A DNA stretch of 64,000 nucleotides from Clostridiales bacterium UBA6981 (GCA_002450075.1 DJYJ01000015.1:2377-66376); one strand, 5' to 3'. Positions 1,347 through 48,198 are shown, counted from the first letter of the stretch. Made by a program: numbers and translations. The notes: a model not told the origin generated them from the letters alone.

Positions 1347-1356
1347 AAAGGAGTAC

Positions 1357-2847: not shown

Positions 2848-2860
2848 CAAGGAGGACGCC

Positions 2861-5137: not shown

Positions 5138-5159
5138 AGTAAACACGAAAAACAGCATA

Positions 5160-5210
5160 AAGCAAGGACGGACAGTTGCGAAAACTGTCCGTCCTTGCTT
5201 TTTTGTTTTC
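5160..5210. terminator. bidirectional intrinsic terminator between convergent genes
   Basis: Perfect 18-bp stem AAGCAAGGACGGACAGTT / AACTGTCCGTCCTTGCTT with a 5-nt loop. It is followed by TTTTGTTTTC on the + strand and a T-rich run on the - strand. Confidence 0.85.
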
Positions 5211-5211
5211 T

Positions 5212-6135: not shown

Positions 6136-6144
6136 GTTCTCTCC

Positions 6145-8765: not shown

Positions 8766-8771
8766 ACGCTC

Positions 8772-21685: not shown

Positions 21686-22870
21686 ATGGACGAATTATCC
21701 CGTAAGGTTTTCCATAAAGAAGAGAGCGAGCTGACCGAATACGAGCGCATGATGCTCGGCATCATGGCGGAAAAGCAGGCGGCCGAGGGCGCCGCTGAGG
21801 AGACACCCGCCGCGGCGCCGGCTGCGGAAGGCCCGGTCGAAGCTCCTGCCGCCGCGGAGGAAACGCCCGCCGAGGCCGAGGAGCCTGCTCCCGTCGAAGA
21901 GGCACCCCAAGACGAGCCTGCGACTGAGGAAGCGTCTGCTGAGGAGCCGTCAGCTGAGGAAGCGCCCGCTGACGAGCTGACAGCCGAGGAAGCTCCCGTC
22001 GCGGAGAGCGCCGCGGAAGAACCGGTCGCGGAGGCCGTTTCCGCGGATGAGCCGGACGACAGCGACGTGAAGATCGCCGGAGAAGAGCCCGTTCAGCCGA
22101 AGAGCGAGCGGATCCCCCTGCTGACCGAGGAGAAGAACCCGGAGCTTGAGCCGGTCGTCCTCACACGGCCGACGATCCAGTTCAAGAACAGCATCGAGCG
22201 TGAAAAGAAGATCACCCGCAAGGTGCAGCGGCACCGCCGCCGTTCCGGTCTTGTGGTGCTCGGGCTGTGTGTGGCGCTGATCTTTGTGGCGTTCCTCTAT
22301 AACGGCATCTTCAACAAGTCCTGGGGTCTCCTGGAAAAGGAAGAGCCCACGCCTGTGCCGGAGGAGCTGATCGCGGCGGAGACAGGCGAAGAAGCCCAGC
22401 TGCAGGAGCCCGAGCCGACGCCCGAGCCCACGCCCGAGCCGCCTCCCGAGCACCGCTATGCGGTCGAGCGGGCGGATATAAGCTGGATCGGCGCGCAGGA
22501 TCTGTGTCTCGCGAGCGGCGGCTATCTCGCCGTTATCAACGACATGGATGAATTCAACCGCATTACGGCGCTGGCCGACGAGCAGGGCATCGAGGCGCTG
22601 TGGGTCGGCTGTCACCGCGACGTGAACAGCAACACGATGGTATGGGAGCACGGCGAGACGGTAGACAAGGCCGTTGATCCCGACGAGCGGCAGATGTCGC
22701 TGTGGGCAGCCGGCGAGCCCTCGTTCATCGACGATGAAGGCACCGACGAGGATTATCTCCTGCTTTGGAACCACGACGGCGGCTGGCGGTATTGGGACAG
22801 CATCGGCGATCTGACCATTTACTTCGGCTGGCGCGGCAGGATCGGCTATGTCTGCGAATTTGACAGCTGA
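21686..22870 (+). CDS. single-pass membrane protein with acidic Ala/Glu/Pro-rich N-terminal region and C-terminal C-type lectin-like domain
   Basis: TM segment LVVLGLCVALIFVAFLY. The C-terminus ISWIGAQDLCLASGGYLAVINDMDEFNRI...ALWVGCHRD...WAAGEPS...DYLLLW...WRYWDS...GYVCEF follows the CTLD pattern (W-x-A-x-x-C, WIGL-like, W-x-x-GEP, W-x-D, final C-E-F). Confidence 0.65.
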   Translation: MDELSRKVFHKEESELTEYERMMLGIMAEKQAAEGAAEETPAAAPAAEGPVEAPAAAEETPAEAEEPAPVEEAPQDEPATEEASAEEPSAEEAPADELTAEEAPVAESAAEEPVAEAVSADEPDDSDVKIAGEEPVQPKSERIPLLTEEKNPELEPVVLTRPTIQFKNSIEREKKITRKVQRHRRRSGLVVLGLCVALIFVAFLYNGIFNKSWGLLEKEEPTPVPEELIAAETGEEAQLQEPEPTPEPTPEPPPEHRYAVERADISWIGAQDLCLASGGYLAVINDMDEFNRITALADEQGIEALWVGCHRDVNSNTMVWEHGETVDKAVDPDERQMSLWAAGEPSFIDDEGTDEDYLLLWNHDGGWRYWDSIGDLTIYFGWRGRIGYVCEFDS

Positions 22871-34216: not shown

Positions 34217-34368
34217 AATGTAACCTCCTTCGCCTATCAATAATAACCCACTTGTATAGTACAGTTGAAAGGATACCAAAGCAATAGGTGGACAACTTTT
34301 TTTCATTGCAAAAATGTTGTCCGCTATGCTATAGTGTCCTTGAGCCGGAAGAGAAGGAGTGAACCGCC

Positions 34369-36183
34369 ATGCTTTCAGAGAGGATAAGCGCCATATTCAC
34401 ACTTCTGCACTGCAACAACACGGAGATTGCCCGTTACGCCGGCTGCTCGTCGGGCAATATCTCCAAACTGAAAACCGGAAGGCGCTCACCGAAGTCCAGC
34501 AGCCCTTCCATTGCCTCGCTGGCGAGCGGTATCTACGGCTATGCCGACTACGAAAACATGCTGCCTGCACTGCAGGAGCTCTGTGGCAGCACGGATACTG
34601 CGCGGGAGACCCTGCTTCCTGCTTTGGTCGCATGGCTCTATGAGACAGACGAGATCGTCCTGCCAGCTCTCACAGACGTGCCGAAAAGCAAGCGGGCGCG
34701 AAAACAGCGGCGGAAGGCCTTTGGAGAGCGACTGGATCGCGCTGCCGCCCTGTTGGATCTTTCCAACGCAAAACTTGCCTCGCAGCTTAGTATCGACGTC
34801 TCTCTTGTCAGCCGTTTCCGCAGCGGTATTTATTCGCCTCACGGGAATGACCGGCTGGCGGAGAAGCTGTCCGATCTGCTGTTCTCCCGTGCGCAGCAGG
34901 TAGGAAAAACAGAGGAGTTTGGCGCACTTTGCGGCGTTGGCGCAGCGCAGCTAAATTCCGATTCCGTGGCAGCGTGGCTCTATGAGATGCCCTCCGAAGA
35001 GGACAACGCGGTTATGGCTGGGCTGCTGCTGCGGTCTCTGGACGAGTTCAAGCCGGGCGGAGGCCTGCCTTCTGCCAGCCCGGATGCGGCGGAGAACCCG
35101 GTTGAAGCCTGCTATTTTGGAACGGAAGGGCTGCGGAGCGCTGTGATCCGCTTTTTGTCCGACGCTGCGCGGGAGGGCGGCGAGCTGCTCCTTTACTCCG
35201 ACGAGCCCATGGACTGGATGACGGGAGATCGGGCTTATTTTGCCCGGTGGACTTCCCTGATGAGCCAGTGTGTGAGCCGCGGCGTGACGATCAAGATCAT
35301 CCACAACGTAGACCGCATTGGGGAAGAGATGGTCAACGCGATCCGCGGCTGGCTGCCCCTGTATGTTTCCAGCAGGATCGAGCCCTTTGTCTTCCGCAAA
35401 CAGCAAAACGCACGGTTTTATCACACGGTATTCCTCCGATCCGGCAGCGCCTGTATCCACGGCTTCTTCCCCACGGAAGGCAGGGAGAGCCGATGGTATG
35501 AATATATCACGGACGCAAAGCGCCTCGGCCTGATCGAACGGGAGTATACCGCCATGCTGTCCGCCGCATCGCCGTTTCTCAAGGTCTACCGGGAAGCGTC
35601 ACGGGAGGAATACCTGTCGTTCCGCTCTGCCGGGCAAGGGGCGAGAGCGTTTCTGCTGTCCGACCTTCCTGTGTTTACTATGCCGGAGAAGCTGTTGGAG
35701 CGGATCCTAAGCCGCGCGGAGCTTGAGCCGGCGCGCAGGAGCTTCGTGCTTTCTCTCTACCGCCGGGAGCGAGAGCTGTTTCAGGCTTTGCTTCAGCAGG
35801 ATGCGGTAAACATGATCCTCTGCTTGCCGGAGGACACCTTGGGACAGCCGCGGTTCGTCAATTTCGGATTTGATCTGCTGGATCTCGTGATGGAATTTAC
35901 GCAGGAGGAATATGCCGAGCACCTGGCGGCCATCACCGAGCTTGTCAGAAACGAGAAGAATTTTCATTTGACGCTGCTGGCTGAGTCACCGTTCCGGGAG
36001 ATTCAGATCGCTATGCCGGGGGATGCTGTGGCCGTTCTGCGCAGCAAAAGGCCCTATGGCGCGTTTGTCTTTTCCAATCCCTCTCTGAGCCAGTCTGTAT
36101 CGGGGTACCTTTCCCTGCTGACAGAAAACCATGCCGCAGACAGAAGCTCGACAATTGCGGCATTGGAAAAGCTGATCCGGTGA
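34369..36183 (+). CDS. large (604 aa) protein with two N-terminal XRE-like HTH segments, otherwise unknown
   Basis: AAGGAG RBS. NNTEIARYAGCSSGNISKLKTGRRSP and SNAKLASQLSIDVSLVSRFRSGIYSP resemble XRE-type HTH helix2-turn-helix3. Confidence 0.55.
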   Translation: MLSERISAIFTLLHCNNTEIARYAGCSSGNISKLKTGRRSPKSSSPSIASLASGIYGYADYENMLPALQELCGSTDTARETLLPALVAWLYETDEIVLPALTDVPKSKRARKQRRKAFGERLDRAAALLDLSNAKLASQLSIDVSLVSRFRSGIYSPHGNDRLAEKLSDLLFSRAQQVGKTEEFGALCGVGAAQLNSDSVAAWLYEMPSEEDNAVMAGLLLRSLDEFKPGGGLPSASPDAAENPVEACYFGTEGLRSAVIRFLSDAAREGGELLLYSDEPMDWMTGDRAYFARWTSLMSQCVSRGVTIKIIHNVDRIGEEMVNAIRGWLPLYVSSRIEPFVFRKQQNARFYHTVFLRSGSACIHGFFPTEGRESRWYEYITDAKRLGLIEREYTAMLSAASPFLKVYREASREEYLSFRSAGQGARAFLLSDLPVFTMPEKLLERILSRAELEPARRSFVLSLYRRERELFQALLQQDAVNMILCLPEDTLGQPRFVNFGFDLLDLVMEFTQEEYAEHLAAITELVRNEKNFHLTLLAESPFREIQIAMPGDAVAVLRSKRPYGAFVFSNPSLSQSVSGYLSLLTENHAADRSSTIAALEKLIR

Positions 36184-36291
36184 ACACTTTGTATCTGTGA
36201 ACTGTTTTTCTCCTTGCAAAAACAAGGAGCCTGCTGTACGAAAAGCGCGTCCTTTTACACTGACGCATCCTTCTTGCTCGGAGGCGAGGAC

Positions 36292-36741
36292 ATGGCAAGC
36301 ATAGTTAATACAAACACCCTGATGAAACGCCTGTTCAAGGCAGCAGATCTTGACACCTACCTGGAAGGAAACGAAAGCGATCTTCACTCCCCGGACTTTT
36401 ATTCGCTTCTGAAGCAGGCCTGCGAAAAGCGGAATATGCTCCCGGCGCAGGTGATCGAACGCTCCCAGATCGAGCGGACCTATGGCCACCAGCTGTTTAA
36501 CGGAACGCGCCGGCCCTCACGCGATAAGGTGCTCCAGCTTGCGCTCGGCCTCGGCTTGAGCGTGGACGAGACCCAGCGTCTGCTGCGTGCGGCGGGAAAA
36601 AGCCCGCTCTATCCCCGGCTGAAGCGGGACGCCGTGATCCTGTACGGGATCGGGAAAAAGCTCCCCATCCTTACCGTTCAGGAGAACCTGACGAAATACG
36701 GGCTGACCCTGCTGGGAGGGCTGAAAAATGGAATCGACTGA
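36292..36741 (+). CDS. small XRE-like HTH protein coupled to the kinase gene
   Basis: GGAGGCGAGGAC precedes ATG 36292. PAQVIERSQIERTYGHQLFNGTRRPSRDKVLQLALGL HTH-like block. The 3' end overlaps the kinase start by 14 nt. Confidence 0.55.
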   Translation: MASIVNTNTLMKRLFKAADLDTYLEGNESDLHSPDFYSLLKQACEKRNMLPAQVIERSQIERTYGHQLFNGTRRPSRDKVLQLALGLGLSVDETQRLLRAAGKSPLYPRLKRDAVILYGIGKKLPILTVQENLTKYGLTLLGGLKNGID

Positions 36742-38446
36742 AACCTGCGCCATGATCCCGAATCTCCCGGACGAGTCAGAATACCCCGGGGAACTGACGC
36801 GGCGCTATGAGCTTTTGGAGTGCTTCTCCGACAAAGAGGACATGCGGACCCTTCTGGCCGCCGACCGCGAGAGCGGCGAGCTCTGTGTGGTCAAGTGTTA
36901 TCTCCGGGAAAGCCCTCTGTTTGACCGCAGCGAGCCGGAAGCCCTGCGGACGATCGACGCTGCGCCGATGCCGCGTTTTCTGGAGGAATACCGCAATGAG
37001 CAGATGCGCTGCGTACTGCGGGAATATGTGCCCGGTGAGACGCTGTCGCAGCTGGCCAAAGAACAGACTTTCACAGAGGAAGAGATCATCCGCATCGGCC
37101 TGCAGCTATGCGATCAGCTCCACGCGCTGCACGGCATGACGCCGCCGGTGATCCATCGGGACATCAAGCCCCAGAATGTTGTCCTGCGCCCGGACGGGGC
37201 GGCCGTGCTGATCGACTTCGGCATCTCGCGGGTCCGCACGGAAAAGGATGCCGACACCGTCGCATTCGGTACCCAGGGCTTCTCCCCGCCGGAGCAGTAT
37301 GGGTTTTCCCAGACGGACGCCCGTTCGGATATCTACTCTCTCGGCATCCTGCTGTACTGGCTGCTGCACCGTGCGACGAAGGTCACGCAAAACAGCCGCT
37401 CCGCCTTGGAAAAGGTCATCGCCCGCTGTGTGTTCTTTGATCCCGACAAACGTTTTGACAACGTAGAGCAAGTCAGGCGCGCACTGCTTGCCGCGAAGCC
37501 GGAGGCACGGAAGAAGCGCAAACGCCTGATTACTGTTGCCGTATGCCTTTTGCTGGCGCTGCTCTCCTGCGGGGTCTTCTTTTCTGCCCGGGCCAATCAG
37601 CGGGCAGTCTTGTTTTCCCAGCCGCTGATCGAGCAGGCGGTGAGGGCAAATCTGGGGCTTTCGGACACGGCACCGATCACAAAGGATATGCTTGAGCAGG
37701 TCACAGCTCTTTACATCGTGGCGGATGCTGCCTACCCGGATGCAGACAGCTTCTACCCCGCCATCAATCGGTGGTATGCGGAGGGGAAGCCGACACGCGG
37801 GGCGATCACAGATCTAAATGACCTCGCGGCAATGCCCAATTTGGAGCGGGTTTGTATCGTCGCGCAGGAGCTGACAGATATCTCAGCCCTGGCAGAGCTT
37901 CCCAAGCTCGACAAAGTGGAGCTCAAGCACAACTATCTCACGGATATTTCTGTTCTGGCCGGGATGGATCACCTGACCTACGTGGGGATCAACGACAATC
38001 CGGTGCGGGATATTTCCCCGCTGGCCGCCTGCCCGAATCTGGCTTTTATGGATCTGTGCGACGTGCGCAGCTACGAGCCATCCGTGATCGCGCAGCTGGG
38101 CAACTTCAACTCTCTGGACATCTCGAACCCCACCGGAAGCTATCGGTATCTGGACGGAAAAAGCATCCTCGATCTGCGCCTCGCTTGGAGCGGTCTGGAC
38201 GATCTGCATTGCCTGGATCATGTGACACGGCTGGAACGGCTGGAGATCGACCATACCGCCGTCTCGGATCTCTCCCCGTTGGCTCTGCACAAAGGGCTGA
38301 AGGTGCTGAAGCTGGCAGGGCTCCCGGTCACCGATCTCAGCGTTTTGCTGGAGCTGCCCCAGCTTGAGGAGGTTTATATCAGCGAGGAACTGCGCCCCGC
38401 CGCCGAGGCTCTCGGCCCGGTTCCTTTTAGCTTCGTGTATGAATAA
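36728..38446 (+). CDS. Hanks-type Ser/Thr protein kinase - TM - extracytoplasmic leucine-rich-repeat domain
   Basis: GGGAGGG RBS. Catalytic-loop HRDIKPQNVVL, DFGISR, GTQGFSPPE. TM LITVAVCLLLALLSCGVFFSA. The C-terminal half is about 22-aa LRRs (LTDISALAELPKLDKVELKHNYLTDISVLAGMDHLTYVGINDNPVRDISPLA...). Confidence 0.8.
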   Translation: MESTETCAMIPNLPDESEYPGELTRRYELLECFSDKEDMRTLLAADRESGELCVVKCYLRESPLFDRSEPEALRTIDAAPMPRFLEEYRNEQMRCVLREYVPGETLSQLAKEQTFTEEEIIRIGLQLCDQLHALHGMTPPVIHRDIKPQNVVLRPDGAAVLIDFGISRVRTEKDADTVAFGTQGFSPPEQYGFSQTDARSDIYSLGILLYWLLHRATKVTQNSRSALEKVIARCVFFDPDKRFDNVEQVRRALLAAKPEARKKRKRLITVAVCLLLALLSCGVFFSARANQRAVLFSQPLIEQAVRANLGLSDTAPITKDMLEQVTALYIVADAAYPDADSFYPAINRWYAEGKPTRGAITDLNDLAAMPNLERVCIVAQELTDISALAELPKLDKVELKHNYLTDISVLAGMDHLTYVGINDNPVRDISPLAACPNLAFMDLCDVRSYEPSVIAQLGNFNSLDISNPTGSYRYLDGKSILDLRLAWSGLDDLHCLDHVTRLERLEIDHTAVSDLSPLALHKGLKVLKLAGLPVTDLSVLLELPQLEEVYISEELRPAAEALGPVPFSFVYE

Positions 38447-38471
38447 GTGAATACCGCGAAAAAGTTCCGAG

Positions 38472-38519
38472 AAAAGCGCCAATGTGTGCAGCCTGCACAC
38501 CAATTGGCGCTTTTCTTTT
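38472..38519 (+). terminator. intrinsic terminator after the kinase gene
   Basis: AAAAGCGCCAAT ... ATTGGCGCTTTT stem with an inner GTGCAG/CTGCAC helix, followed by TCTTTTG. Confidence 0.75.
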
Positions 38520-38584
38520 GCTATACTTTTTACTGGTTTATTGTAAGCAGATTTGCTTCCGAAAGAAACAGGAGGGACGGTACC

Positions 38585-40603
38585 ATGGCCTATACCGCAA
38601 TCGAAAATATGAGAAAACGGAATGAAGCGCGCTTTGGCTCGGATGTGGGGCCGCAGCAACCGCCTCTCTATCAGAACCGTTTCTGTCAGCAGGATCTGAA
38701 GTCCGCGGCGCTGCGCTTTCTCCATGAACGCTGTGAGCAACTGCTGTTTGACCCTGCGAGAGAGACGGAGGAGCGGCAGACCGGCGTTTTCCTCGGCAAG
38801 AGCCTTTCTGCAAACCAGATCCCCTTTAACATGGAAATGGACGTCAACCGGCTTTGTCTCGAAAAAGCGCTGGAGGCCTTTATCGACTCCGGCGTGGCCG
38901 AGGACGCCTATACGGTCTATTACTGCTATCTGGACATGTTCCTGGGGCGCTACGGAAACTCCAAGCGCATGGTGGAGCTGCTGAGCGAATACGAGGCAAA
39001 CGGCAGCTCGCTGCTGATGAAGCACCGGGATCACTATTCCCATTCGGTCTATGTGTTTGCCCTCGGCCTGGCCATCTACGAAACCAATGAAGCGTACCGG
39101 AACAGCTTTTGGCGCTTCTATCGGTTGGAGGAGCGGAAAGAGAACGAAAGAGCCAATCTGTTTTTGGAGTATTGGGGACTGACGGCGCTCTTTCACGACA
39201 TCGGCTATCCCTTTGAGCTGCCTTTCGAGCAGGTGCTCAGCTACTTTGAAGTGGATCATCAGGAGCGCGGCAAGGGCAGTTTATACCTGGCCTATCATGA
39301 TGTGGAGGCGCTGACCGCCCTGGACGAGGCGGCGAAGGTTCATTTCGAAACGCTTTACGGAAAACGCTTCGAGACGACCAGCGCGCTGCTGGCGCATGAT
39401 CTTGCGCAAAAGCTCGGCGCAGCCTATGACTTCTCCGAGGACTACCTGCTGGCCGTGCTGGACCGGAAGCCGACGCAGCCCAACCGCTTCGGCTACTTCA
39501 TGGATCACGCCTTTTTCAGCGCCTCCCGCCTGTACCGGGAGCTGGCGGAGGAGCTCGGCGCGGAGAATCTCTCTCCCATGCATGTGGACGCGCTGTCGGC
39601 CATTATGCTGCATAACAGCCTCTATAAGTTCTCCATCGCTTTTTATAAGGACAATGAAAAACGGAAAGCGCCGCTGAAGGCGGAGCTTCACCCCCTGGCC
39701 TGGCTGCTGATGCTCTGTGACGAGCTGCAGTGCTGGGACCGCACCGCCTACGGGCGCAATTCCCGCACGGAGCTGCACCCCATGGCCGTCGATTTTGATT
39801 TCTCCGACAGCGCGATCCGCGCCGTCTATTACTACGACCGGGAAGAACAGGAAAAAATCGACGCCTTCAAGCTGAAATACGCCGCCTGGGAAGCGGGCGG
39901 CGAGCAGGGCAAGCCTCCGCGTCTGAAAGCCTACAGCGACATGGCGGAGAAGGAGCAGCGCTTTACGGCGGATATTGAAAAGATCGTGGACACCGAGACC
40001 TGTCCTCTGCATATCCGTCCGGACGTCCGGCAGGTGGATCGCCGGAGCAAGCACACCTATCTGTCCGGCAGCAACTTCCTGCACTTATACGATTTTGCCG
40101 TGGCGCTCCACGGACGGAACATGCCGCAGGAGACCACTGCGGAGGAATTGGAAGAAAAATTCACCTCGCAGTCGCTGGAATACCAGCTCTCCGGCATCAA
40201 CCGTGCAAAAAGCTTCAGCCGCTATCTCAATGCCCTGGGCTGCTTCTATACGGACAGACCGGTGGATTATGAGATGGTGACGGCCTTTACGCCCGAGCAG
40301 GCGCTGCAGATCGCGCCCCTGGAGCATGAGCGCTGGGTGCGGGAGCATCAAGGCATGGGCTGGCGTTGTGGCACAGCCTATGAGACCCTGCCGCTCCCGG
40401 AGGATAACCGGAATGCGCGGAGAGCGCTGCGGGAGCAGCTGCGCTGCCACAAGCTGGCCATGGACGGAGATGTGACGGACGAAGAGGTCCGCGCGCATTT
40501 CTTCTCCCTGCCGGAGGAAGATCAGGACAAGGACTGGAAGCCCTTCAACAGCATGCTCAAGCTGCTGAAAAAGTTTGACGGGCTGCGCATCTATAAGCTG
40601 TAA
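38585..40603 (+). CDS. HD-domain phosphohydrolase with C-terminal RyR-like domain
   Basis: AGGAGGGA RBS before ATG 38585 (the listed 38447 start would read through the terminator). H..HD..H..D set: HYSHSVYVF, LFHDIGYPFE, IMLHNSLY, LMLCDELQCWD. The C-terminus LEHERWVREHQGMGWRCG...LPEEDQDKDWKPFNSMLKLLKKFDGLRIYK follows the RyR-domain pattern (E.W......GW.yG...LpeeeK..D......L...G..I.K). Confidence 0.6.
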   Translation: MAYTAIENMRKRNEARFGSDVGPQQPPLYQNRFCQQDLKSAALRFLHERCEQLLFDPARETEERQTGVFLGKSLSANQIPFNMEMDVNRLCLEKALEAFIDSGVAEDAYTVYYCYLDMFLGRYGNSKRMVELLSEYEANGSSLLMKHRDHYSHSVYVFALGLAIYETNEAYRNSFWRFYRLEERKENERANLFLEYWGLTALFHDIGYPFELPFEQVLSYFEVDHQERGKGSLYLAYHDVEALTALDEAAKVHFETLYGKRFETTSALLAHDLAQKLGAAYDFSEDYLLAVLDRKPTQPNRFGYFMDHAFFSASRLYRELAEELGAENLSPMHVDALSAIMLHNSLYKFSIAFYKDNEKRKAPLKAELHPLAWLLMLCDELQCWDRTAYGRNSRTELHPMAVDFDFSDSAIRAVYYYDREEQEKIDAFKLKYAAWEAGGEQGKPPRLKAYSDMAEKEQRFTADIEKIVDTETCPLHIRPDVRQVDRRSKHTYLSGSNFLHLYDFAVALHGRNMPQETTAEELEEKFTSQSLEYQLSGINRAKSFSRYLNALGCFYTDRPVDYEMVTAFTPEQALQIAPLEHERWVREHQGMGWRCGTAYETLPLPEDNRNARRALREQLRCHKLAMDGDVTDEEVRAHFFSLPEEDQDKDWKPFNSMLKLLKKFDGLRIYKL

Positions 40604-40622
40604 GCAAAGGCGGGAAAACACA

Positions 40623-41180
40623 ATGGCAAACCTTGCATCTGTCAGCGTTCTCTTTGAAAACGAAGAGCAAGCAAAGCGTGCTCTAACCGTCACGGAGGGC
40701 ATGATCAAGCTGCTCTATGCCCCGCCGACGCTGCCCTGGGCGGCAGAAGCGCAGCAAATCCCCTCGCTGAGCAAGCGCTATTTCCGCTTCTGTGAGGAAG
40801 CCGCAAAGCTTGACGTGCTCGCCGAGCGCCCGCACTGTGCGCTCAAATGGCTGCGGCGGGAGGGCGCGCAGCTCGCTCTTACGCGCTGCGCCGATATCCA
40901 GTCGCCTGTGAATGAACGCTCGCCGGCTGACTTTTTCAGTCAGCTGTGCCTTGTTCTGTCCAAGTGCTTTCCGGACGGTGCTTTTACGGCTTTCTGCCGC
41001 CATGAGGAGACGGTAAGCGCCACGGTGCAGCTGATCCGCATCATGCATCGGGATAACAAACTGATTTTCACCGAGATGTACCGGCTGGACGGAGATGAGC
41101 GGGACGAAGATGACTGGTCCTGCGCCGCCACGTTTTTGTTGCGGGACAGCGACGGCGTTTTCGTCTGGTCGAAGAGGTAA
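40623..41180 (+). CDS. hypothetical protein (185 aa), no recognisable domain
   Basis: ATG 19 nt after the HD-RyR stop and 6 nt before the next gene. The call rests on tight operon packing and reasonable composition only. Confidence 0.5.
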   Translation: MANLASVSVLFENEEQAKRALTVTEGMIKLLYAPPTLPWAAEAQQIPSLSKRYFRFCEEAAKLDVLAERPHCALKWLRREGAQLALTRCADIQSPVNERSPADFFSQLCLVLSKCFPDGAFTAFCRHEETVSATVQLIRIMHRDNKLIFTEMYRLDGDERDEDDWSCAATFLLRDSDGVFVWSKR

Positions 41181-41186
41181 ATAAGT

Positions 41187-42017
41187 ATGACCCCGAAATG
41201 GATGAAACAGATCCCGCCCTATGAGGGCGATCAGCCCTATTTGTACCTGGCCTTTGCCGAGGAGGACAGCGGGCGTGTCTGGAAGCTCCTGCGGCCGCTG
41301 CTGGCGCGGGGCTGCCGGGTGTGGTACTGCGTTGGCCCGGCGGGCAGCGCGGAGGAGCTGCTGTACCGACAGGAGCGCTGTGAAAAGGCGGGGCTGACCG
41401 TGGTCTATCTGACGGACGCACTCTGCGCGGACCGGGACAGCAAAAGCGCCGTTCTTGTCAATCAAAAATATAACCGTCCGATCCTCTGCCTGGATCCGGA
41501 CGAAAAGGACCGCCGCCTCGACATGAATCTGCGGGAGACGATCCCGCATGTTCCCTTATATCGGCTGTCAAGCGAGGAATGGGAGGGCGCCGTTTTACAC
41601 GCCGAGGGCTTTTCCCAGGACATGCTCGGTGAGCCGATCCCGATCGGAGACGACAGCAAAACCATCAAAAAGCTCACGCTGACCTTCTGTGCGTTGGCCC
41701 TGCTGCTGGCCGTGGTGTCCTTTGCGGGCTTTCGGGTGTTCGGCTGGTTCTCCCCCGCGGCGCGGGATGAGCTGGAAATCCGCGACCCGGCGATCCGCTC
41801 CGCGGTGCGTCAGGCTGTGGGCGGCGGCGCGATCACGGAGGAGCGGGCAAATGAGGTCAGCTTCCTGCGCTTCCGGGAACTGCCGGAGAGCTGGGAGGAA
41901 CTTGAGCTGCTGCCGCACTTACAGCGCATCGAGCTGCCGCAGCTCTCCCTGTTGGACGGCGGCGCGCTGCCGGAAGGAGACTGGGTCATCGAATTGAGCG
42001 GAGGTGACGGCTCATGA
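41187..42017 (+). CDS. degenerate TIR-like domain - TM - short LRR protein
   Basis: GAAGAGG RBS. PYEGDQPYLYLAFAEED...LLARGCRVWY parallels the PYEGSRPFVFISYAHRQ...WRLWYDEG block of the next gene. TM LTLTFCALALLLAVVSFAGF. LRR-like tail. Confidence 0.6.
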   Translation: MTPKWMKQIPPYEGDQPYLYLAFAEEDSGRVWKLLRPLLARGCRVWYCVGPAGSAEELLYRQERCEKAGLTVVYLTDALCADRDSKSAVLVNQKYNRPILCLDPDEKDRRLDMNLRETIPHVPLYRLSSEEWEGAVLHAEGFSQDMLGEPIPIGDDSKTIKKLTLTFCALALLLAVVSFAGFRVFGWFSPAARDELEIRDPAIRSAVRQAVGGGAITEERANEVSFLRFRELPESWEELELLPHLQRIELPQLSLLDGGALPEGDWVIELSGGDGS

Positions 42018-43180
42018 GCGGCTTCTTCAAGCCCTACGAGGGCAGCCGCCCCTTTGTCTTTATCAGCTATGCGCACCGCCAGTCCGATACCGTCCTCGAC
42101 ACCATCCGCATCCTGCACGAAAAGGACTGGCGGCTCTGGTACGACGAGGGGATCCCTGCAGGCAGCGACTGGCCGGCCAACATTGCCCGGCATATGCAAA
42201 GCTGTGAGCGGGTGATCTTCTTCCTCTCCGCGCGGGCTTTGGCATCCCACAACTGTTACAGCGAAATGAAGGCCGCGGCGCGGCAGGGAAAACCGATCCT
42301 GCTTGTCCGGCTGGAGGACATATCACCGGACGAAAAGTGGTCGGAGCTTCTGGCCGAATGTCCGGAGATTCCCTTGCTTGAGGAACCGGCGGAGCGTGCG
42401 GGCGCGATCCTGCGCTCCGGCTTTCTGCCCCGCCGCCTGCACCGGCGCTTTACGGAGCGCATCCCCTGGCGGGCGCTGGGACTGATCGCCTCGCTGCTCT
42501 TTTTCCTGGCGGCGGCGGGCGTGCTCGGCGCGCTGACCACGGGAATATGGAACCCGGTCATGGCAGCAGAAATCCCAACAGAGACGCCCGCTTCCCATGA
42601 GGCGCCGACACCGGTGCCCATTGTGGAGCTGGGAGAGGCGGAGCGCTTCTTCGCCGTCAGCTTCCCCGATAAGCAGCAGGAGCGTGCCATCCGCCGGGCG
42701 CTGGATATTCCCGCGGACGCGATCTACCGCTGGCAGATCGCCGGGATCCCGGAGCTGTATTTCTGCGGGAATCTGACGGTGGACGGCAAGGCCGCCGTCT
42801 CCTTCGACGCGGACGGGACCTGCCGCGTCAACGGAGCCCCGGTGATCCAGGGGAATGTGTCCGATCTGCGTCTGATCGAATCCATGGTAAAGCTGGAAAA
42901 ACTCGCCCTGATCTTCCAGCCGATGGACGACCTGTCCGGATTGAGCGGGCACCTGCTGTTGCGGGAGCTGAGCCTCGCGGGCAGCAGCGTGGACGATCTC
43001 TCCGCGCTGACAGAACTGCCAAGCCTGGAGACGCTGCATCTGGAGCACACCGGCGTGCGCGACCTGAGGCCGCTGGAAGAGCTGCCGAGCCTGAAAACCG
43101 TGACGGTCAGCCGGGAAATGCTGCCGCTGACATGGACCGAGCAGGCCGCTTTCGCGGTGGTTTTGATCCGTGAATCCTGA
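42014..43180 (+). CDS. TIR domain - TM - LRR protein (canonical bacterial TIR motifs)
   Basis: GGAGGTGA RBS and ATGA overlap with the upstream stop. FVFISYAHRQSD, WRLWYDEGIPAGSDW, VIFFLSARALASHNCYSEM (conserved Glu E84 at nt 42263-42265). TM LGLIASLLFFLAAAGVLGALTTGIW. C-terminal LRRs. Confidence 0.75.
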   Translation: MSGFFKPYEGSRPFVFISYAHRQSDTVLDTIRILHEKDWRLWYDEGIPAGSDWPANIARHMQSCERVIFFLSARALASHNCYSEMKAAARQGKPILLVRLEDISPDEKWSELLAECPEIPLLEEPAERAGAILRSGFLPRRLHRRFTERIPWRALGLIASLLFFLAAAGVLGALTTGIWNPVMAAEIPTETPASHEAPTPVPIVELGEAERFFAVSFPDKQQERAIRRALDIPADAIYRWQIAGIPELYFCGNLTVDGKAAVSFDADGTCRVNGAPVIQGNVSDLRLIESMVKLEKLALIFQPMDDLSGLSGHLLLRELSLAGSSVDDLSALTELPSLETLHLEHTGVRDLRPLEELPSLKTVTVSREMLPLTWTEQAAFAVVLIRES

Positions 43181-43201
43181 TTCTTTGAAGGAGGATGCGA
43201 T

Positions 43202-46200
43202 ATGAGTAAAAAAGTGATCCATCTGCTGTGCAGCGATGGCGACCGCGCGGCGCTGCAGCCGGTGCTGGACGCTTTGCAGGCCAAGGGACTGCGGGTGTCC
43301 GGGGAAGTACCGGAGAAAAACGACCTTGTGCTGGCGGTGCTGTCCGAGGCTTTCTATGCAGACAACGACAAGACCGATGCGCTGCTTGACCTGCTCGCCG
43401 CGGGGGCGGAAAACGTGCTGCCGCTGCAGCTCGACGGCGTACCGATCCCGGACGCGATCAAAAATGCGCTCTACGCCCGCAACATCATCCCCGCCGCAGG
43501 GCGGGACGCGGCACATACCGCCGAGCGCATCGCTGACGCGCTGCCGAAGCGGAAGTCGAAGCTGCCGCTGATCCTCGGCGCTGCCGGGCTCGTGCTGCTG
43601 GCCGCTGTCGGCCTGTTGATCTGGCGCGGCGCGCAGAAAGGGGAGGCCGTACCTGTCATGGCGGAGACGGCCAACGAGATTTATATCCCCATGGGTCTCA
43701 CGGAAGAAGACCTGGCCGCCATCGAGGACGTGGTCATCGTGGGCGACTATTTCGGCTATTACACCGACGCAGATTTCCGCGAGGCCGGAGAACACTGGCT
43801 CAACGTCTATGACGACGTGGCCTATCGCACCTTTGATGACGACGTTCCCCGGTGGATCAGCAAGGAGGACGGGCACGCCTATACCATGACCCGCTACGAC
43901 GATCTGCGCTTTCTGGAGCTGATGCCGAAGCTGCGGTTTCTGGAACTGGTGAATGTGGAGGCGGGTGCTGACTCGCTTCCGGATTTGAGCGAAGCCGCTA
44001 TTCTGGAGGGCGTGTCCCTCTCTGATTGCGAAATTGACAGTCTGGACTGGCTGGCCGGGGCGCATATGCACGACTTCGACATGCACTCCACGCAGGTGAC
44101 AGACTTTGCGCCGCTCAGCTCCTGCGAGAGACTGAGGACTGTATTTCTCGATTTCTATCAGATTGAAGAGGCCGACCTCTCGACATTCGCCCCGCCCGCG
44201 CTGGAACATCTGGAGATCTGCAACGGGCAGGATCTGCGCGGCGGGCTTGACCTTTCCGCCCTCTCTGCCTGTACAAAGCTGCGCGAATGCCGGCTGGATG
44301 CTGATCTCCCGCTCGCCGATCTGTCCTTCCTCGCCGACGCGTCAAAGCTGGAAGCTCTATACATTTACAATCTGCATGAGCTGCGGGATATCTCTGCGCT
44401 GAACGGGATGAAAAATCTCAAGAATCTGGACATCCAGTACTGCGAGCGCGTCACGGACTATACGCCCATCGCGGGGTGTTCTTCACTGGAACAGATCCAT
44501 CTCCAGTGTGACTACAACCCCGACGCCCTGCGGGACGCCTCCTTCCTCGCCGATCTTCCCAGACTGTGGGATATCGGGCTTTACGGCTGCAATCTGAACG
44601 ATCTGAACTTCCTGGAGGGCAAGCCGGATAACGGCAGCTTGTGTCTGGGCTTTGCCGGGGATATCCGGGACTATTCGGGGCTTGCCACTGTCAAGCACTA
44701 TGACTGGCTGCATCTGAATCCGCGCCGGGTAGACGGCAGCCGCTTCGGCGATCTCTCGGCCGTGCTGCCCTATCTGGAGGGCGCTGAGGTGAAGAACCTG
44801 CACCTGCACGACTGCGGCGGGATCGACCTGGGCCTGCTGCCCAAGGTCACAGAGAGCCTGGAGATCTGGTACGGCGATCTGACCGACTTGAGCACCCTGC
44901 CGGATTGGGGCATCAAGAAACTGATGCTGTATGACTGCCAGTACCTCACGAGCCTGGACGGCATACAGAGCCTGCCCGCTTATACACAGCCCGGCTCTTT
45001 GACCCTTGCGGTCGCGGGCTGCCCGCGTCTGCGGGACTGGAGCGCCATCGAAAACGCCAGTCTGTCGGGTCTGGAGCTGCAGGGCGTCTACTCGCTGCCG
45101 GTATTCGACGGCATCGGCTTCGGCTCCCTGCGGCTGGAGAGCATCGAGGATCTGAGCGATCTGAGCATTCTCTCCGCTCTGTCGGACGGTCACAGCTATA
45201 ACAGCATAGCGCTGGTGGGTCTGGACGCCATCAGTGACCTCACCCCGCTGCGCCGCCTGCAGATCAAGCATCTGCAGATCCCGCCCCAGGTGGCGGATCA
45301 GGCGGAGGAGCTGGTGGAAGCCGGGATCGTGGGCGACTATGAGGTGGCCTACCCCGACGGGGACTGGCAGCCCTTTGACGGTCGGGTAGAGCTTTTGAGC
45401 CTGGACGAGCTGGACACCCTTCCTTCCTCCCTGCTGCAGCGGGTGGAGTGCCTGTGTATTGCAGGCGATACGCTGTTCGATTTCGACCGCTATGACATCT
45501 GGGAAGACTGGGAGCACAGGGATCGGAACGGGAATCCGGCGCTGCAGCTCCACGACCGCGAGACGGACGCGGTGACGCCTCTCTCCCCGGGTGTGATCAC
45601 GGATCTGAGCAGCCTCAGCGCCCTCACCGGCCTGCGGGAACTGTATCTTGTCGGCCAGCCTATCCAAAGTCTGGACGGTATTCAGGTGTTCTCCTTCCTG
45701 GAGGAATTTTCCGCCAAGGGGTGTGCAGAGCTGACTGACGCCTCCGCTCTCTTCGCCCTGCCGGAGCTGCGCTGGGTGGAACTCAAGTGCACGCCGGTGG
45801 ATTCCATCCAGGGCGTACAGAATCTGCCGGAGCTGCGGTATCTGAACGTCTCCAACACAAAGGTGGAGGATCTGACGCCTCTGGCGGAGTGCGACTTCTC
45901 CGCTGCGGAGGAAGACATCGGCTTTGACCTGGACTGCAACGAGCTGAAACTGGGCGAGGAGGATTTCGCCGCCATTGCCCATATCCGGCGCTTTGGGGGT
46001 CTGGCCTTCACCGACGCCGATCCCGCCGTTTGGATCGATGCGCTGTCGGACAGCGAGATACATTATTTCGGCGCCGCAGGAGACCTGCAAAGCAATGAGG
46101 ACCTGGCTGCCTTCGTCTCGGATCATCCGGAGCTGCGGCAGCTGTTCCTGGGCTGGGCGGAGGATATTACCGATCTGACGCCGCTGCTGGCGCTGGAAAA

Positions 46201-46291
46201 CCTGGAAAGAGTCGAAATCAACGGGGACATGCGGGAGGCCATCGCCAGCCTCGACGGGCAGAGCTGTGACTGGCTGGAGATCCAAAACTGA
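43202..46291 (+). CDS. degenerate TIR-like domain - TM - very large (about 850 aa) LRR ectodomain protein
   Basis: GAAGGAGG RBS. The N-terminus VIHLLCSDGD...LQAKGLRV...LVLAVLSEAFYADNDKTD...VLPLQLDG keeps the beta-alpha periodicity of the TIR/flavodoxin-like fold. TM LPLILGAAGLVLLAAVGLLIW. Dozens of 22-25-aa L..L..L.L....I.D.S.L repeats follow. Confidence 0.65.
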   Translation: MSKKVIHLLCSDGDRAALQPVLDALQAKGLRVSGEVPEKNDLVLAVLSEAFYADNDKTDALLDLLAAGAENVLPLQLDGVPIPDAIKNALYARNIIPAAGRDAAHTAERIADALPKRKSKLPLILGAAGLVLLAAVGLLIWRGAQKGEAVPVMAETANEIYIPMGLTEEDLAAIEDVVIVGDYFGYYTDADFREAGEHWLNVYDDVAYRTFDDDVPRWISKEDGHAYTMTRYDDLRFLELMPKLRFLELVNVEAGADSLPDLSEAAILEGVSLSDCEIDSLDWLAGAHMHDFDMHSTQVTDFAPLSSCERLRTVFLDFYQIEEADLSTFAPPALEHLEICNGQDLRGGLDLSALSACTKLRECRLDADLPLADLSFLADASKLEALYIYNLHELRDISALNGMKNLKNLDIQYCERVTDYTPIAGCSSLEQIHLQCDYNPDALRDASFLADLPRLWDIGLYGCNLNDLNFLEGKPDNGSLCLGFAGDIRDYSGLATVKHYDWLHLNPRRVDGSRFGDLSAVLPYLEGAEVKNLHLHDCGGIDLGLLPKVTESLEIWYGDLTDLSTLPDWGIKKLMLYDCQYLTSLDGIQSLPAYTQPGSLTLAVAGCPRLRDWSAIENASLSGLELQGVYSLPVFDGIGFGSLRLESIEDLSDLSILSALSDGHSYNSIALVGLDAISDLTPLRRLQIKHLQIPPQVADQAEELVEAGIVGDYEVAYPDGDWQPFDGRVELLSLDELDTLPSSLLQRVECLCIAGDTLFDFDRYDIWEDWEHRDRNGNPALQLHDRETDAVTPLSPGVITDLSSLSALTGLRELYLVGQPIQSLDGIQVFSFLEEFSAKGCAELTDASALFALPELRWVELKCTPVDSIQGVQNLPELRYLNVSNTKVEDLTPLAECDFSAAEEDIGFDLDCNELKLGEEDFAAIAHIRRFGGLAFTDADPAVWIDALSDSEIHYFGAAGDLQSNEDLAAFVSDHPELRQLFLGWAEDITDLTPLLALENLERVEINGDMREAIASLDGQSCDWLEIQN

Positions 46292-47892
46292 TGAACACAG
46301 AGAAGACGATCCCGATCATCATCGGGGTCACCGGACACCGGGCGATCCGGGAGAAAGACCGTCCGGCGCTTACGGCGGCGGTAAAGGCGGAGCTGGAAAA
46401 GCTTCGCGGGCTTTGTTCTCACTCGCCGCTCGTGATGCTGAGCTCTCTCGCGGAGGGCGCCGATCTCCTGTGCGCCGACGCGGCGGAGGAGTTGGGTATT
46501 CCCCTGATCGCGGTACTTCCCCGGGAGCGGACGGATTACGAGCAGGATTTCAGCCCGGAGGCGCTCGAGCGCTTTGCCCACCACTGTGAGCGCGCCGGGC
46601 AGGTGTTCGTCTCGCCGAGCACAGAACCCCTTCCCCCAGATGGCGTCAGCCGGGCGTATGCGTTTCGGCAGGCCGGGATCTATGTGGCGTCCCACTGCCA
46701 TGTGCTGCTGGCCCTCTGGGACGGAGAGCCGGGGAAGCACGGCTGCGGCACGGCGGAGACGGTGGACTTTGCCCTGAACGGTAGTTATGATCCCGCGTCC
46801 GGCCTGTCCCCGCGCTTGGGCAGCAACGAGGCCGTGATCCACCTTTACACGCCGCGGGTGGAAAGCACGGAAAAGACGGCCGGTGCAGTGGCCGTTCTGG
46901 GAAATCAGGATGCCGTTTGGGACATACTCCGCAAAACGGACGACTTCAATCAAAACGCCTCGAAGGTTTCATCAACGGGGAACTCCCGGCTCCCTGCCGG
47001 GCATGACGGCGACCCCGCCCTGAAGAAGATGGAGACGATCAGTCGCATCGCGGGAAAACTCAGCCGACAATATGCCGGGCGTTATCGGCGCGTGCTTGCC
47101 TTGCTCGCTGTGGCCAGCGCCCTGGTTACCTTTGCGTTTTTACTGTACGACGAGGCGCAGGCGATTTGGATGATTCTTGTCTGCGGAGCGATGCTGCTTG
47201 CCGCCTGGGGCTGTCAGCGCTATGCCGTTCGTTCGGACTGTCACCGCCGCTATATCGAATACCGCGCGCTGGCCGAAGGCTTACGGGTGCAGACCTATCT
47301 GGGCTATGCGGGCAGCGGCATCCAGGCCTCCGGGCTGCTGTCCTGGACGCAGCAGGAGGAGACTGCGTGGATCCTGGACGCTCTCTGTGCGCTGACGATC
47401 GGAAACACACCGAGAGAGGCGCACGATATTCGTTCCTGCTGGGTGGATGCCCAGCGGGAGTACCACCAAAAAGCGGCAAAGAGCGCGGAAGAAAAGCTCT
47501 CTGCCAGTGACCGCACCGTGCGTTTTGCGTTGCTTCTGAGCGTTGGGTTATATCTGCTGGGCGTGGGCTATGAGCTCCTTTGCGGCGGACTGGTGTTCCG
47601 GCCCACTGTCGCGGTAGGGGATGTGGAGCTTTGGCGCACGGTCTTGAAGATCCTGGTGGGGACGATCTCCGCCGTGACGCTCTTTGTGGCCAATTTCTAC
47701 GGACGCCTGTCCCTGCCGCGCACGCTTTCCGACCACCGGAAGATGGAGCGCTTTTACGAAAAAATGTCCTCGGAGATCGAAAAGTGCGGACAGACGGATA
47801 CCGTTCTGACCGTGCTGGCCCGGGAGGAGCTGACCGAAAACGGCAACTGGTGCTCCTATCAGCGGGACAACAAGCCGGATCTTTCACTTTGA
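46291..47892 (+). CDS. SLOG-like Rossmannoid domain fused to two transmembrane hairpins (SLATT-like), candidate membrane effector
   Basis: The start overlaps the upstream stop (TGATG). N-terminal IIIGVTGHR...LVMLSSLAEGADLLCADAAEELGIPLIAVLP...HVLLALWDGEPGKHGCGTAETV matches the strand-helix pattern of LOG/DprA/YpsA-type SLOG domains. There are four hydrophobic helices in two pairs (VLALLAVASALVTFAFLLY / IWMILVCGAMLLAAWG and FALLLSVGLYLLGVGYELLCGG / ILVGTISAVTLFVANFYG). Confidence 0.6.
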   Translation: MNTEKTIPIIIGVTGHRAIREKDRPALTAAVKAELEKLRGLCSHSPLVMLSSLAEGADLLCADAAEELGIPLIAVLPRERTDYEQDFSPEALERFAHHCERAGQVFVSPSTEPLPPDGVSRAYAFRQAGIYVASHCHVLLALWDGEPGKHGCGTAETVDFALNGSYDPASGLSPRLGSNEAVIHLYTPRVESTEKTAGAVAVLGNQDAVWDILRKTDDFNQNASKVSSTGNSRLPAGHDGDPALKKMETISRIAGKLSRQYAGRYRRVLALLAVASALVTFAFLLYDEAQAIWMILVCGAMLLAAWGCQRYAVRSDCHRRYIEYRALAEGLRVQTYLGYAGSGIQASGLLSWTQQEETAWILDALCALTIGNTPREAHDIRSCWVDAQREYHQKAAKSAEEKLSASDRTVRFALLLSVGLYLLGVGYELLCGGLVFRPTVAVGDVELWRTVLKILVGTISAVTLFVANFYGRLSLPRTLSDHRKMERFYEKMSSEIEKCGQTDTVLTVLAREELTENGNWCSYQRDNKPDLSL

Positions 47893-48142
47893 AGAGAGCA
47901 GACCGAACCGCGCAGGTATTTGTCATTCGCAACATTTGGGATCACGATCTCATCATCGTCGCAAAGACTATACGACAGCGAGTTTCTCTTTCCTGAAATA
48001 TCTCTCGGAAAGAGAGTACGACCATGCTTCGGCAGGATATTTGGAAGATAATCATCACGACGATTTTTCGCTTCCAAGAGGTCACCGGTGAACTCAGCCC
48101 GCGGGACAATATCATAATATTTCTTGTATTTACAAAATGTAT

Positions 48143-48170
48143 GAGGGCAGGAGCCGCAACTCCTGCCCTC
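48143..48170 (-). terminator. hairpin terminator downstream of guaA
   Basis: GAGGGCAGGAG / CTCCTGCCCTC 11-bp stem with a 6-nt loop. On the minus strand it is followed by ATACATTTTGTAAAT. Confidence 0.6.
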
Positions 48171-48198
48171 ACTGTTTCCTTCATCATCATGTGTCTGG

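Follow-up and report, generated by a model that had tools for sequence, protein, structure and literature searches.

Could a bacterium carry receptors in which a TIR domain inside the cell is joined through the membrane to leucine-rich repeats (LRRs) outside it, and if so, which partners would such receptors signal to? This question is raised by a stretch of 64,000 nucleotides (nt) from Clostridiales bacterium UBA6981 (GCA_002450075.1 DJYJ01000015.1:2377-66376; about 60% G+C), hereafter the window, in which three adjacent genes, here called A, B and C, had been predicted to encode proteins consisting of a TIR-type module, a single transmembrane (TM) helix and an LRR tail. The genes belong to a co-directional array on the + strand (34369-47892), which also encodes a ryanodine receptor (RyR)-domain protein and a candidate membrane effector, D (Table 1). 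We found that A, B and C are paralogous, under purifying selection and co-encoded in the order A-B-C, and that B alone keeps the glutamate (Glu) of the TIR active-site column. On balance, we think that the cassette is probably a membrane-embedded multi-subunit TIR signalling system with a Thoeris-like output and an input resembling that of Toll-like receptors (TLRs).

TIR-family domains in all three proteins

Orthologues were collected by searching an alignment of B against the GTDB set, which holds one genome per species. Out of the 280 matching stretches obtained in this way, 80 loci were taken, their open reading frames (ORFs) were called and compared by BLAST, and 37 of these loci had long flanks. 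Two relatives, L086 (95% identical) and L087 (88% identical), served for close comparison, and scans with Pfam, NCBIfam and PADLOC covered nine proteins of the array.

B was recognised by Pfam TIR_2 (PF13676) with an E-value of 5.2e-17 and 62.9 bits against a cut-off of 28, and also by LRR_4. As single sequences, the N-termini of A and C gave no Pfam TIR match; A had no Pfam match anywhere and C matched LRR families only. When profiles of the N-terminal regions, built from 58-64 orthologues each, were compared by hhalign, A aligned to the TIR profile of B over 143 columns with a probability of 99.3% (E 3.3e-20), C aligned to B with 95.9% (E 6.4e-9), and A and C aligned to each other with 96.5% (E 1e-9). 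Since searches of PDB sequences with the A and C profiles returned only noise, the TIR assignment of these two proteins rests on hhalign and on a fold search. For the latter, AlphaFold2 (AF2) models based on alignments of database homologues were used, with a predicted local distance difference test (pLDDT) score of 83.4 for full-length A and 81.9 for residues 1-160 of C. Both models consist of alternating strands and helices in a flavodoxin-like order, followed by one long helix. In a Foldseek search of the PDB, nearly all of the top 40 matches of the C model were TIR domains, including BtpA/TcpB (6e-4), MAL, SARM1, MyD88, TLR15, TRR-2 and PdTIR, at template modelling (TM) scores of 0.5-0.63. 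The A model retrieved a B. cereus TIR as well as the TIRs of SARM1, SPARTA and RPS4/RRS1, mixed with CheY-like, DNPH1 and MilB structures (E about 1e-3, TM scores of about 0.5-0.66). A and B have, in addition, the N-terminal motifs PYEG..P[YF] and R.WY..G in common. From profiles and models taken together we conclude that A, B and C all carry TIR-family domains, A being a close paralogue of B and C a more distant one. The TIR-type module that the original prediction had placed at the start of each protein was thus recovered, for B by TIR_2 and for A and C by alignment to B and by Foldseek; as to a possible non-TIR fold, the A and C models retrieve TIR structures.

Only B keeps the glutamate of the active-site column

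The candidate catalytic residue of B is Glu84, whose codon, GAA, was found at the predicted place in the sequence. This glutamate occurs in 62/62 orthologues without exception; S78, N80 and C81 are likewise invariant. The B-family profile, searched against PDB sequences, found the CRISPR-associated TIR protein Cat1 (1.4e-6), TLR15/2, TLR6, 7uxr and TLR1, and in every printed alignment Glu84 falls on the conserved glutamate of the (W/C)xxE motif of the alphaC helix (CWDELEQA in Cat1, WCQYELYFA in TLR15/2, TEYELNGM in 7uxr). This is the column associated with nicotinamide adenine dinucleotide (NAD+)-cleaving (NADase) activity in the survey by Toshchakov and Neuwald (PMC7075850). According to the same survey, this glutamate is also found in the non-enzymatic TIRs of TLR1/2/6/10, so its presence alone is no proof of catalysis (PMC7075850). 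The alignments to the Cat1, TLR15/2, TLR6 and 7uxr TIRs and the invariance among orthologues agree with the earlier placement of Glu84 on the catalytic column.

For A, a gapless alignment had put an alanine at the glutamate position, and hhalign gave the same result, with Ala88 of A and Ala60 of C opposite Glu84 of B. Across the families, this column holds A, R, N or S in 58 orthologues of A and A, R, K or T in 64 orthologues of C, which bears out the claim that C, too, is without the glutamate. In 43/64 C orthologues the preceding column is D or E; a shift by one residue is disfavoured because of the hydrophobic register. A has invariant polar residues of its own (D82 and K86), and the D44-E45 pair of WYDEGI, invariant in B, is gone from it. 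Family-wide, these alignments point to one potentially catalytic TIR (B) and two Glu-less, presumably non-catalytic TIRs (A and C).

Membrane topology and ectodomains

In a Kyte-Doolittle scan, A, B and C each showed a single strong hydrophobic peak of 19 residues (means of 2.3-2.6), and none of them had an N-terminal hydrophobic signal segment, in agreement with the proposed single TM helix and missing signal peptide. The helix is present in all orthologues of the three proteins (71-77 each). In the 15 residues before and after it, the mean number of lysines plus arginines is 3.35 versus 1.05 for B, 3.87 versus 1.94 for C and 2.69 versus 1.69 for A, and the count is higher before than after in 69/77 orthologues each for B and C and in 46/71 for A. 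Because of this charge bias, the Pro/Thr-rich linker following the helix in B, the internalin-like LRRs and the cytoplasmic location of the TIR substrate NAD+, we predict that A, B and C are type II membrane proteins with the TIR inside and the LRRs outside (N-in/C-out). Kept in every orthologue and enriched in positive charges on its N-terminal side, the hydrophobic segment looks like a membrane-spanning one; its sidedness is still a prediction.

The LRR tails had been put at about 70, 190 and 850 residues. Those of B and C (212 and 886 residues) were clearly recognised as LRRs with Pfam and internalin models. LRR_4 matched C at 2.6e-20; among NCBIfam models, internalin_H matched C at 6e-23 and internalin_A matched the kinase of the array at 6e-17, the internalin scores all lying far below the family cut-offs. 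A hidden Markov model (HMM) of the B ectodomain matched the ectodomain of the kinase (1.6e-13) and, in C, eight segments (best 7.6e-12), so that the C ectodomain is a concatenation of B-like LRR blocks. The 93-residue ectodomain of A, examined as a further LRR, had no significant match either by BLAST or with the B-ectodomain HMM, and its two to three short strand/helix units are suggested by the AF2 model only. The C-terminal motif L.x[VL]x[VI]Sx[DE]M.P occurs in B, in the kinase and, in a looser form, in C; it recurs as LKRLYISYDMAP in L085, a relative with 28% identity. In line with the common ancestry that had been proposed from a related C-terminal cap, the ectodomains of B, C and the kinase are significantly similar; for that of A, no significant similarity was found by BLAST or with the B-ectodomain HMM.

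Conservation of the A-B-C trio

The hosts of the 80 loci are rumen and gut Clostridia represented by metagenome-assembled genomes (MAGs) labelled Oscillospiraceae/Ruminococcaceae, Lachnospiraceae or Christensenellales. In 67 of the 69 loci that hold all three genes the order A-B-C is intact, at identities from 83% down to about 31%; homologues keeping the TIR-TM-LRR order, a search for which had been suggested as a check, thus exist. C is the most divergent of the three, is present in two or three copies in 8/37 long loci and ranges from 870 to 1876 residues. Among deeper orthologues, ectodomains and cytoplasmic parts are conserved to 46 versus 54% for A, 55 versus 61% for B and 41 versus 50% for C.

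Selection was estimated by the Nei-Gojobori method against L086 and L087. The ratio of nonsynonymous to synonymous substitution rates (omega) was about 0.1-0.3 for the TIR-like, ectodomain, SLOG, TM, HD-like and RyR parts, with 0.28-0.31 for A and 0.2-0.26 for the LRRs. The outlier, 0.94 for the cytoplasmic part of C against L086, stands on a synonymous rate (dS) of 0.03 over 118 codons. Diversifying selection on the LRRs, which had been suggested as a check, left no bulk sign, and bulk positive selection was rejected at the level of whole domains with these two relatives. The idea that A and C are pseudogenes was likewise rejected, since both are under purifying selection and have invariant family-specific residues. 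As a separate observation, dS differs by up to 50-fold between adjacent domains or genes of the cassette (0.009 in the RyR part, 0.5 in the A ectodomain), which suggests recombination mosaics among close strains. Gene A of L086 (4476-5326) was called as two pieces of 171 and 131 residues, so that it is either a pseudogene with a frameshift or misassembled.

The cassette occupies different sites in different species, such as mnmG/peptidyl-prolyl isomerase (L001), nusA-infB-ribF (L004) and guaA-pyrG in the window. A distant Christensenellaceae locus with about 31% identity (L078, 7752-20455) has six tandem TIR(-like)-TM-LRR genes, of which the first alone has a strong TIR_2 match; the other five encode paralogues of about 470 residues with LRRs and a weak or undetectable TIR. 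The same locus encodes a RyR-domain protein and, in divergent orientation, a D homologue, with a response-regulator-PAS-GGDEF-HD-GYP gene adjacent. A scan of IMG/VR gave a single distant match, L085 (UViG 3300048577_000449, 85-9119), in which a stand-alone gene for a 378-residue TIR-TM-LRR protein with 28% identity to B and an intact NCxxE motif lies at the contig end, next to genes for a phage-type integrase, two transposases, an OLD-family ATPase-TOPRIM protein and a UvrD-C fragment (Gabija-like).

Linked proteins with putative nucleotide-binding and membrane domains

Among the 37 long-flank loci, the RyR-domain protein is linked to the trio in 30, D in 25 and both in 24, at positions that shuffle between upstream and downstream of A-B-C. 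Some apparent absences arise from C duplications, which push downstream genes past the fetched flank. These linked proteins, one with an RyR domain and one of SLOG-SLATT type, make the signalling reading of the cassette much stronger.

The C-terminal domain of the 672-residue RyR-domain protein was identified by profile searches of the PDB (6uhi at 1.8e-15; the B. thetaiotaomicron 'putative ryanodine receptor' 3nrt at 4e-8) and by Pfam PF02026, which matches 10/34 orthologues (best 6e-16). Phage proteins with this domain bind 2'/3' cyclic ADP-ribose (cADPR) at nanomolar affinity or cleave it via a His75/Asp117 dyad, with Trp78 stacking on the adenine; the residues used for binding or hydrolysis are H75, W78, H100 and D117 (2026 preprint, PMC13232231). 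H581-x2-W584 and D650 are invariant in the family, and an alignment to 3nrt puts them at H75, W78 and D117; the correspondence to cADPR-contact residues covers these three, and no equivalent of His100 was identified. In the N-terminal stretch of about 500 residues, H150, H153, H204-D205, D307-H308 and D379 are invariant, in an arrangement resembling H...HD...D. The Pfam HD match is marginal (E 0.014 for the window protein, 5e-4 in 1/34 orthologues), and a PDB profile search with this region gave no match. We consider that the protein may bind or degrade a cADPR-type signal or may act as a second effector.

For D, with its four predicted TM helices, Pfam DUF4231/SLATT matched 20/33 orthologues (best 9e-7) and the YAcAr SLOG family 12/33 (best 7e-6), the window protein itself scoring 23.4 bits against a cut-off of 24.7 and 15.9 bits against 28.2, respectively. 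SLATT_3 was found in three distant relatives and DprA in one. PDB sequence searches with three different profiles of the SLOG part gave no match. On these domain matches, D is a candidate signal-gated membrane effector. Its family is large, with 5872 representatives at E<=1e-3. We sampled four distant contexts, of which three were informative (the contig of the fourth is 2.1 kb) and in which the D homologues are 29-31% identical. In these, the homologue lies directly downstream of a gene for a 1123-residue TIR_2/ThsB_TIR-WD40 protein (L092, 287-5479), overlaps a gene for a 1133-residue DUF4062-NACHT-TPR protein (L090, 4603-9683) or follows an AAA/STAND-RyR protein (L089, 2520-7336). D-type proteins are thus recurrent partners of TIR-superfamily repeat-sensor proteins and of RyR proteins, and the D family may represent a class of effectors of TIR/RyR systems that is widespread and so far undescribed.

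The array and the rest of the window

The features of the array are collected in Table 1. A and B overlap by 4 nt, and the stop codon of C shares 1 nt with the ATG of D. The starts of the RyR-domain gene and of the 185-aa gene were set by orthologue alignments and by gene calls in L086/L087.

Table 1 Features of the cassette and of the array around it (positions in the window).
Feature	Position	Strand	Description
Gene A	41187..42017	+	276 aa; TIR-like cytoplasmic domain ~1-155, TM residues 163-181 (nt 41673-41729), 93-aa ectodomain
Gene B	42014..43180	+	388 aa; TIR_2 residues 15-105, TM residues 156-174 (nt 42479-42535), Pro/Thr-rich linker, LRR ectodomain
Candidate catalytic Glu84 of B	42263-42265	+	codon GAA, in NCYSEM
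Gene C	43202..46291	+	1029 aa; TIR-like ~1-118, TM residues 123-141 (nt 43568-43624), 886-aa multi-block LRR ectodomain
Gene D	46291..47892	+	533 aa; N-terminal SLOG-like domain, four predicted TM helices including a DUF4231/SLATT-type pair, conserved C-terminal tail
HD-like/RyR-domain protein	38585..40603	+	672 aa from ATG 38585; mechanical ORF from 38447
Ser/Thr protein kinase-TM-LRR (accessory)	36728..38446	+	TM residues 267-285; Pkinase 8.4e-27, LRR_4 1.2e-13
HTH_31 (Xre-type) regulator (accessory)	36214..36741	+	HTH_31 4.2e-6; overlaps kinase gene
185-aa protein, no known family	40623..41180	+	between RyR gene and A; ORF listed from 40575
604-aa protein (possible accessory)	34369..36183	+	first gene of the array; two weak Xre-type HTH matches (HTH_3, Xre-like-HTH)
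Promoter-like site	34306-34335		before the 604-aa gene
GC-rich bidirectional hairpin	48141..48172		12-14 bp stems on both strands (terminator scan); between the end of D and convergent guaA; likely terminator of the array

The kinase gene is present in 7/80 related loci and the HTH_31 gene in five, in each case together with the kinase gene. Since they occur in so few loci, we rank the pair as accessory or as a parallel sensing arm. The kinase-TM-LRR topology resembles that of plant receptor kinases. The 185-aa protein was called in L086/L087, is present in 4/80 loci and has no match in Pfam, NCBIfam or PADLOC; the 604-aa protein is present in L087 and was not found in the more distant loci. 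Three long antisense ORFs of 458-628 residues on the - strand (42323-44209, 44483-46285 and 37883-39259) were treated as artefacts of stop-poor, high-G+C sequence, because the + strand genes have conserved orthologues.

Two observations concern other parts of the window. A 394-residue protein (21686-22870) matches Lectin_C, a C-type lectin domain that is uncommon in bacteria, with an E-value of 2.2e-5, above the Pfam cut-off. Between 24000 and 32000, the G+C fraction drops to 0.49-0.54 versus about 0.60; this stretch, which codes for a hybrid histidine kinase/response regulator, a solute-binding protein and a sodium:solute symporter, may have been acquired horizontally.

A model of the cassette and its alternatives

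How might these proteins work together? In the systematic survey of Thoeris systems (bioRxiv 10.64898/2025.12.03.692087), SLOG receives 3'cADPR in type I, a SLATT effector responds to canonical cADPR in type VII, and type III has several TIR genes. In the model that we favour for the cassette, the large, divergent and copy-variable ectodomains of C, possibly together with the conserved ectodomain of B, would bind an extracellular ligand. Clustering driven by the ligand would gather the cytoplasmic TIRs, of which the non-catalytic A and C might nucleate or gate B in the manner of RRS1-RPS4 or of TLR co-receptors, and B, once assembled, would cleave NAD+ to a cADPR-type nucleotide. Binding of this nucleotide by the SLOG domain of D would open or oligomerise the SLATT membrane module, so that the cell would be depolarised or arrested. 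Finally, the RyR domain would bind and possibly cleave the signal (cleavage is possible because the positions of the His/Asp dyad are kept) and would thereby end signalling or drive a second effector. In this model, catalysis, the messenger, the gating of D, regulation by A and C, the ligand and the function in the cell are what we infer from the analysis. As to this function, defence against an agent encountered at the cell surface, e.g. a phage, is the most likely one, and this is the least certain step of the model. In its most specific form, the cassette would be a transmembrane pattern-recognition complex in which the extracellular LRRs of C and B sense, for instance, an adsorbing phage while the cytoplasm has not yet been entered, the TIRs form a hetero-oligomer, a cADPR-type messenger gates a SLOG-SLATT pore and the RyR-domain enzyme shuts the response off; this we put forward tentatively, as a possibility rather than an expectation.

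Several results weigh against this interpretation. The SLOG assignment of D depends on sub-threshold Pfam matches, the HD assignment is weaker still, and the LRR nature of the A ectodomain is supported by a model only. With PADLOC, the ThsB matches of B were marginal (E 1e-3 to 2e-2), and PADLOC and NCBIfam gave none of the nine proteins a defence-system assignment beyond generic kinase models and these ThsB matches; no PADLOC model matched A, C, D or the RyR-domain protein, and no model of a Thoeris effector was matched. In the distant locus where the D homologue follows an AAA/STAND-RyR protein, no TIR was found; hhalign gave a negative result for each of the two unannotated neighbours. Neither in the window nor in related loci is the cassette flanked by mobile-element or defence genes, its neighbours being the housekeeping genes guaA, pyrG, nusA-infB and mnmG, and a protein search of a plasmid collection found no copies, which speaks against defence. 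The LRRs show no bulk arms-race signature. Lineage-restricted and well conserved, the cassette resembles a module of physiological signalling more than it does a typical patchy defence island.

This leads to the first alternative, a non-immune outside-in module of rumen Clostridia, by which a conserved extracellular cue (cell-wall state, a plant or host polymer, neighbouring cells) would be relayed to membrane potential or dormancy, with the kinase-LRR and HTH genes as a parallel transcriptional arm. It would account for the housekeeping flanks devoid of mobile and defence genes, for vertical conservation at constant gene length from 95% to about 31% identity, for an LRR omega as low as that measured and a B ectodomain conserved nearly as well as its TIR, and for the linkage in close relatives to a kinase-TM-LRR protein with a B-like ectodomain and to an HTH regulator. 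However, every characterised pairing of a bacterial TIR with SLOG/SLATT is anti-phage (bioRxiv 10.64898/2025.12.03.692087), homologues of D are found with NACHT-TPR and TIR-WD40 proteins of the kind seen in conflict systems, species differ in the number (1-3) and length of C and in where the cassette sits on the chromosome, and the distant homologue in L085 has a mobile/defence context. Taken together, we regard a purely physiological role as less likely than the favoured model, yet as a serious rival to it.

Less probable, and in our view improbable, is a system without a second messenger, in which B would be a SARM1-like, membrane-tethered NAD+ depleter or all TIRs would be TLR-like scaffolds, D and the RyR-domain protein being unrelated neighbours. 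The frequency of the glutamate in the non-enzymatic TIRs of TLR1/2/6/10 (PMC7075850) would fit this, as would the sub-threshold SLOG assignment and the absence of D from 12/37 and of the RyR gene from 7/37 long loci. Some of these absences, however, are genes lying beyond the fetched flank after C duplication, and both genes stay linked to the trio from 83% to 31% identity in spite of shuffling. Both proteins have domains of types that are known to bind TIR products, other TIR-superfamily genes are repeatedly found next to D homologues, and the overlap of C and D by 1 nt suggests translational coupling.

An inverted or peripheral topology, with the helix as a mere anchor, the LRRs cytoplasmic (N-out) or both ends inside and nothing sensed outside, draws on the sidedness being a prediction and on the modest charge bias of A, and is very improbable in view of the strong positive-inside bias of B and C, the post-translational export of a folded TIR of 120-155 residues that an N-out orientation would need without a signal sequence, the cytoplasmic TIR substrate NAD+, the likeness of the LRRs to secreted/surface internalins and the Pro/Thr-rich linker after the TM helix of B.

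Comparison with known systems

The signalling system that we propose would be Thoeris-like in its working with a TLR-like input, yet we count it as a member of neither group: its architecture is not that of a TLR, and its matches to Thoeris models are marginal. Thoeris type VII, which consists of a ThsB TIR and the SLATT protein ThsH responding to canonical cADPR (bioRxiv 10.64898/2025.12.03.692087), is similar in that a Glu-bearing TIR is encoded with a SLATT-type membrane protein, presumed to be a nucleotide-gated killer. In contrast to type VII, the TIR of the cassette is membrane-anchored and has a predicted extracellular LRR, two obligatory degenerate TIRs and an RyR-domain protein, and D, compared with ThsH by description only, adds a SLOG-like N-terminal domain and four TM helices. 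With types I and III, the cassette would have in common SLOG as the receiver of a TIR-made cADPR isomer and, with type III, multiple TIR genes per operon; here, however, the effector output is of SLATT/four-TM type instead of SIR2, the extra TIRs are without the glutamate, B matches ThsB marginally and no ThsA model matched.

The likeness to animal TLRs lies in the predicted single-pass arrangement with the LRR outside and the TIR inside, in the combination of Glu-bearing and Glu-less TIRs as in heterodimerising receptors, and in the matches of the B TIR profile to the TIR structures of TLR15/2, TLR6 and TLR1. However, the order is reversed (N-TIR-TM-LRR-C) in a type II protein without signal peptide, unlike the type I architecture of TLRs, the LRRs are of the bacterial internalin type, and the partners are nucleotide receivers instead of death-domain adaptors. 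The resemblance is most simply explained by convergent domain shuffling, not by orthology. In plants, RPS4/RRS1 likewise combine a catalytically competent TIR with a Glu-less TIR encoded side by side, and both structures are among the fold matches; in the cassette, there is no NB-ARC/STAND module, and the proteins are membrane-bound with predicted extracellular LRRs. The cassette RyR domain keeps the H-x2-W and Asp positions of phage RyDEP/PF02026 proteins (PMC13232231), whereas its protein is host-encoded, fused to an HD-like region of about 500 residues and linked to TIR genes. Finally, C and the kinase have the LRR subtype of Listeria-type internalins, with an N-proximal TM helix and a cytoplasmic signalling domain in place of a signal peptide and an LPXTG or GW anchor.

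In the open-access full-text literature, we found no description of a bacterial TIR-TM-LRR receptor, which is no proof of novelty; the systematic Thoeris survey (bioRxiv 10.64898/2025.12.03.692087) mentions LRR 0 times. What is new is the LRR input across the membrane, the obligatory set of three TIRs, of which, judging by their sequences, one is catalytic and two are degenerate, and the host RyR-domain partner.

Implications

To our knowledge, the characterised bacterial TIR systems (Thoeris types I-XI, SPARTA, CRISPR Cat1 and TIR-STING) all have cytoplasmic TIRs and intracellular sensing. If our reading is true, TIR/NAD+ signalling would extend to cell-surface surveillance, and the cassette would be the first case of signalling by transmembrane TIR receptors in prokaryotes. 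It would have arrived at the logic of TLRs independently and would be coupled to the same cADPR/RyR-domain chemistry that is under debate for animal ryanodine receptors. It would also offer a tractable prokaryotic model of how ligand binding by an ectodomain drives TIR assembly, the central unsolved step of TLR activation. The Glu-bearing TIR and its Glu-less paralogues provide a natural test of regulation by non-catalytic TIRs, comparable to plant sensor/helper pairs, and the host RyR-domain protein is, as far as we found, the first genomic hint of RyR domains within TIR pathways, beyond phage counter-defence. For the abundant rumen and gut Clostridia to which it is confined, and which are known only as MAGs, the cassette is a candidate determinant of phage-host or cell-cell interactions.

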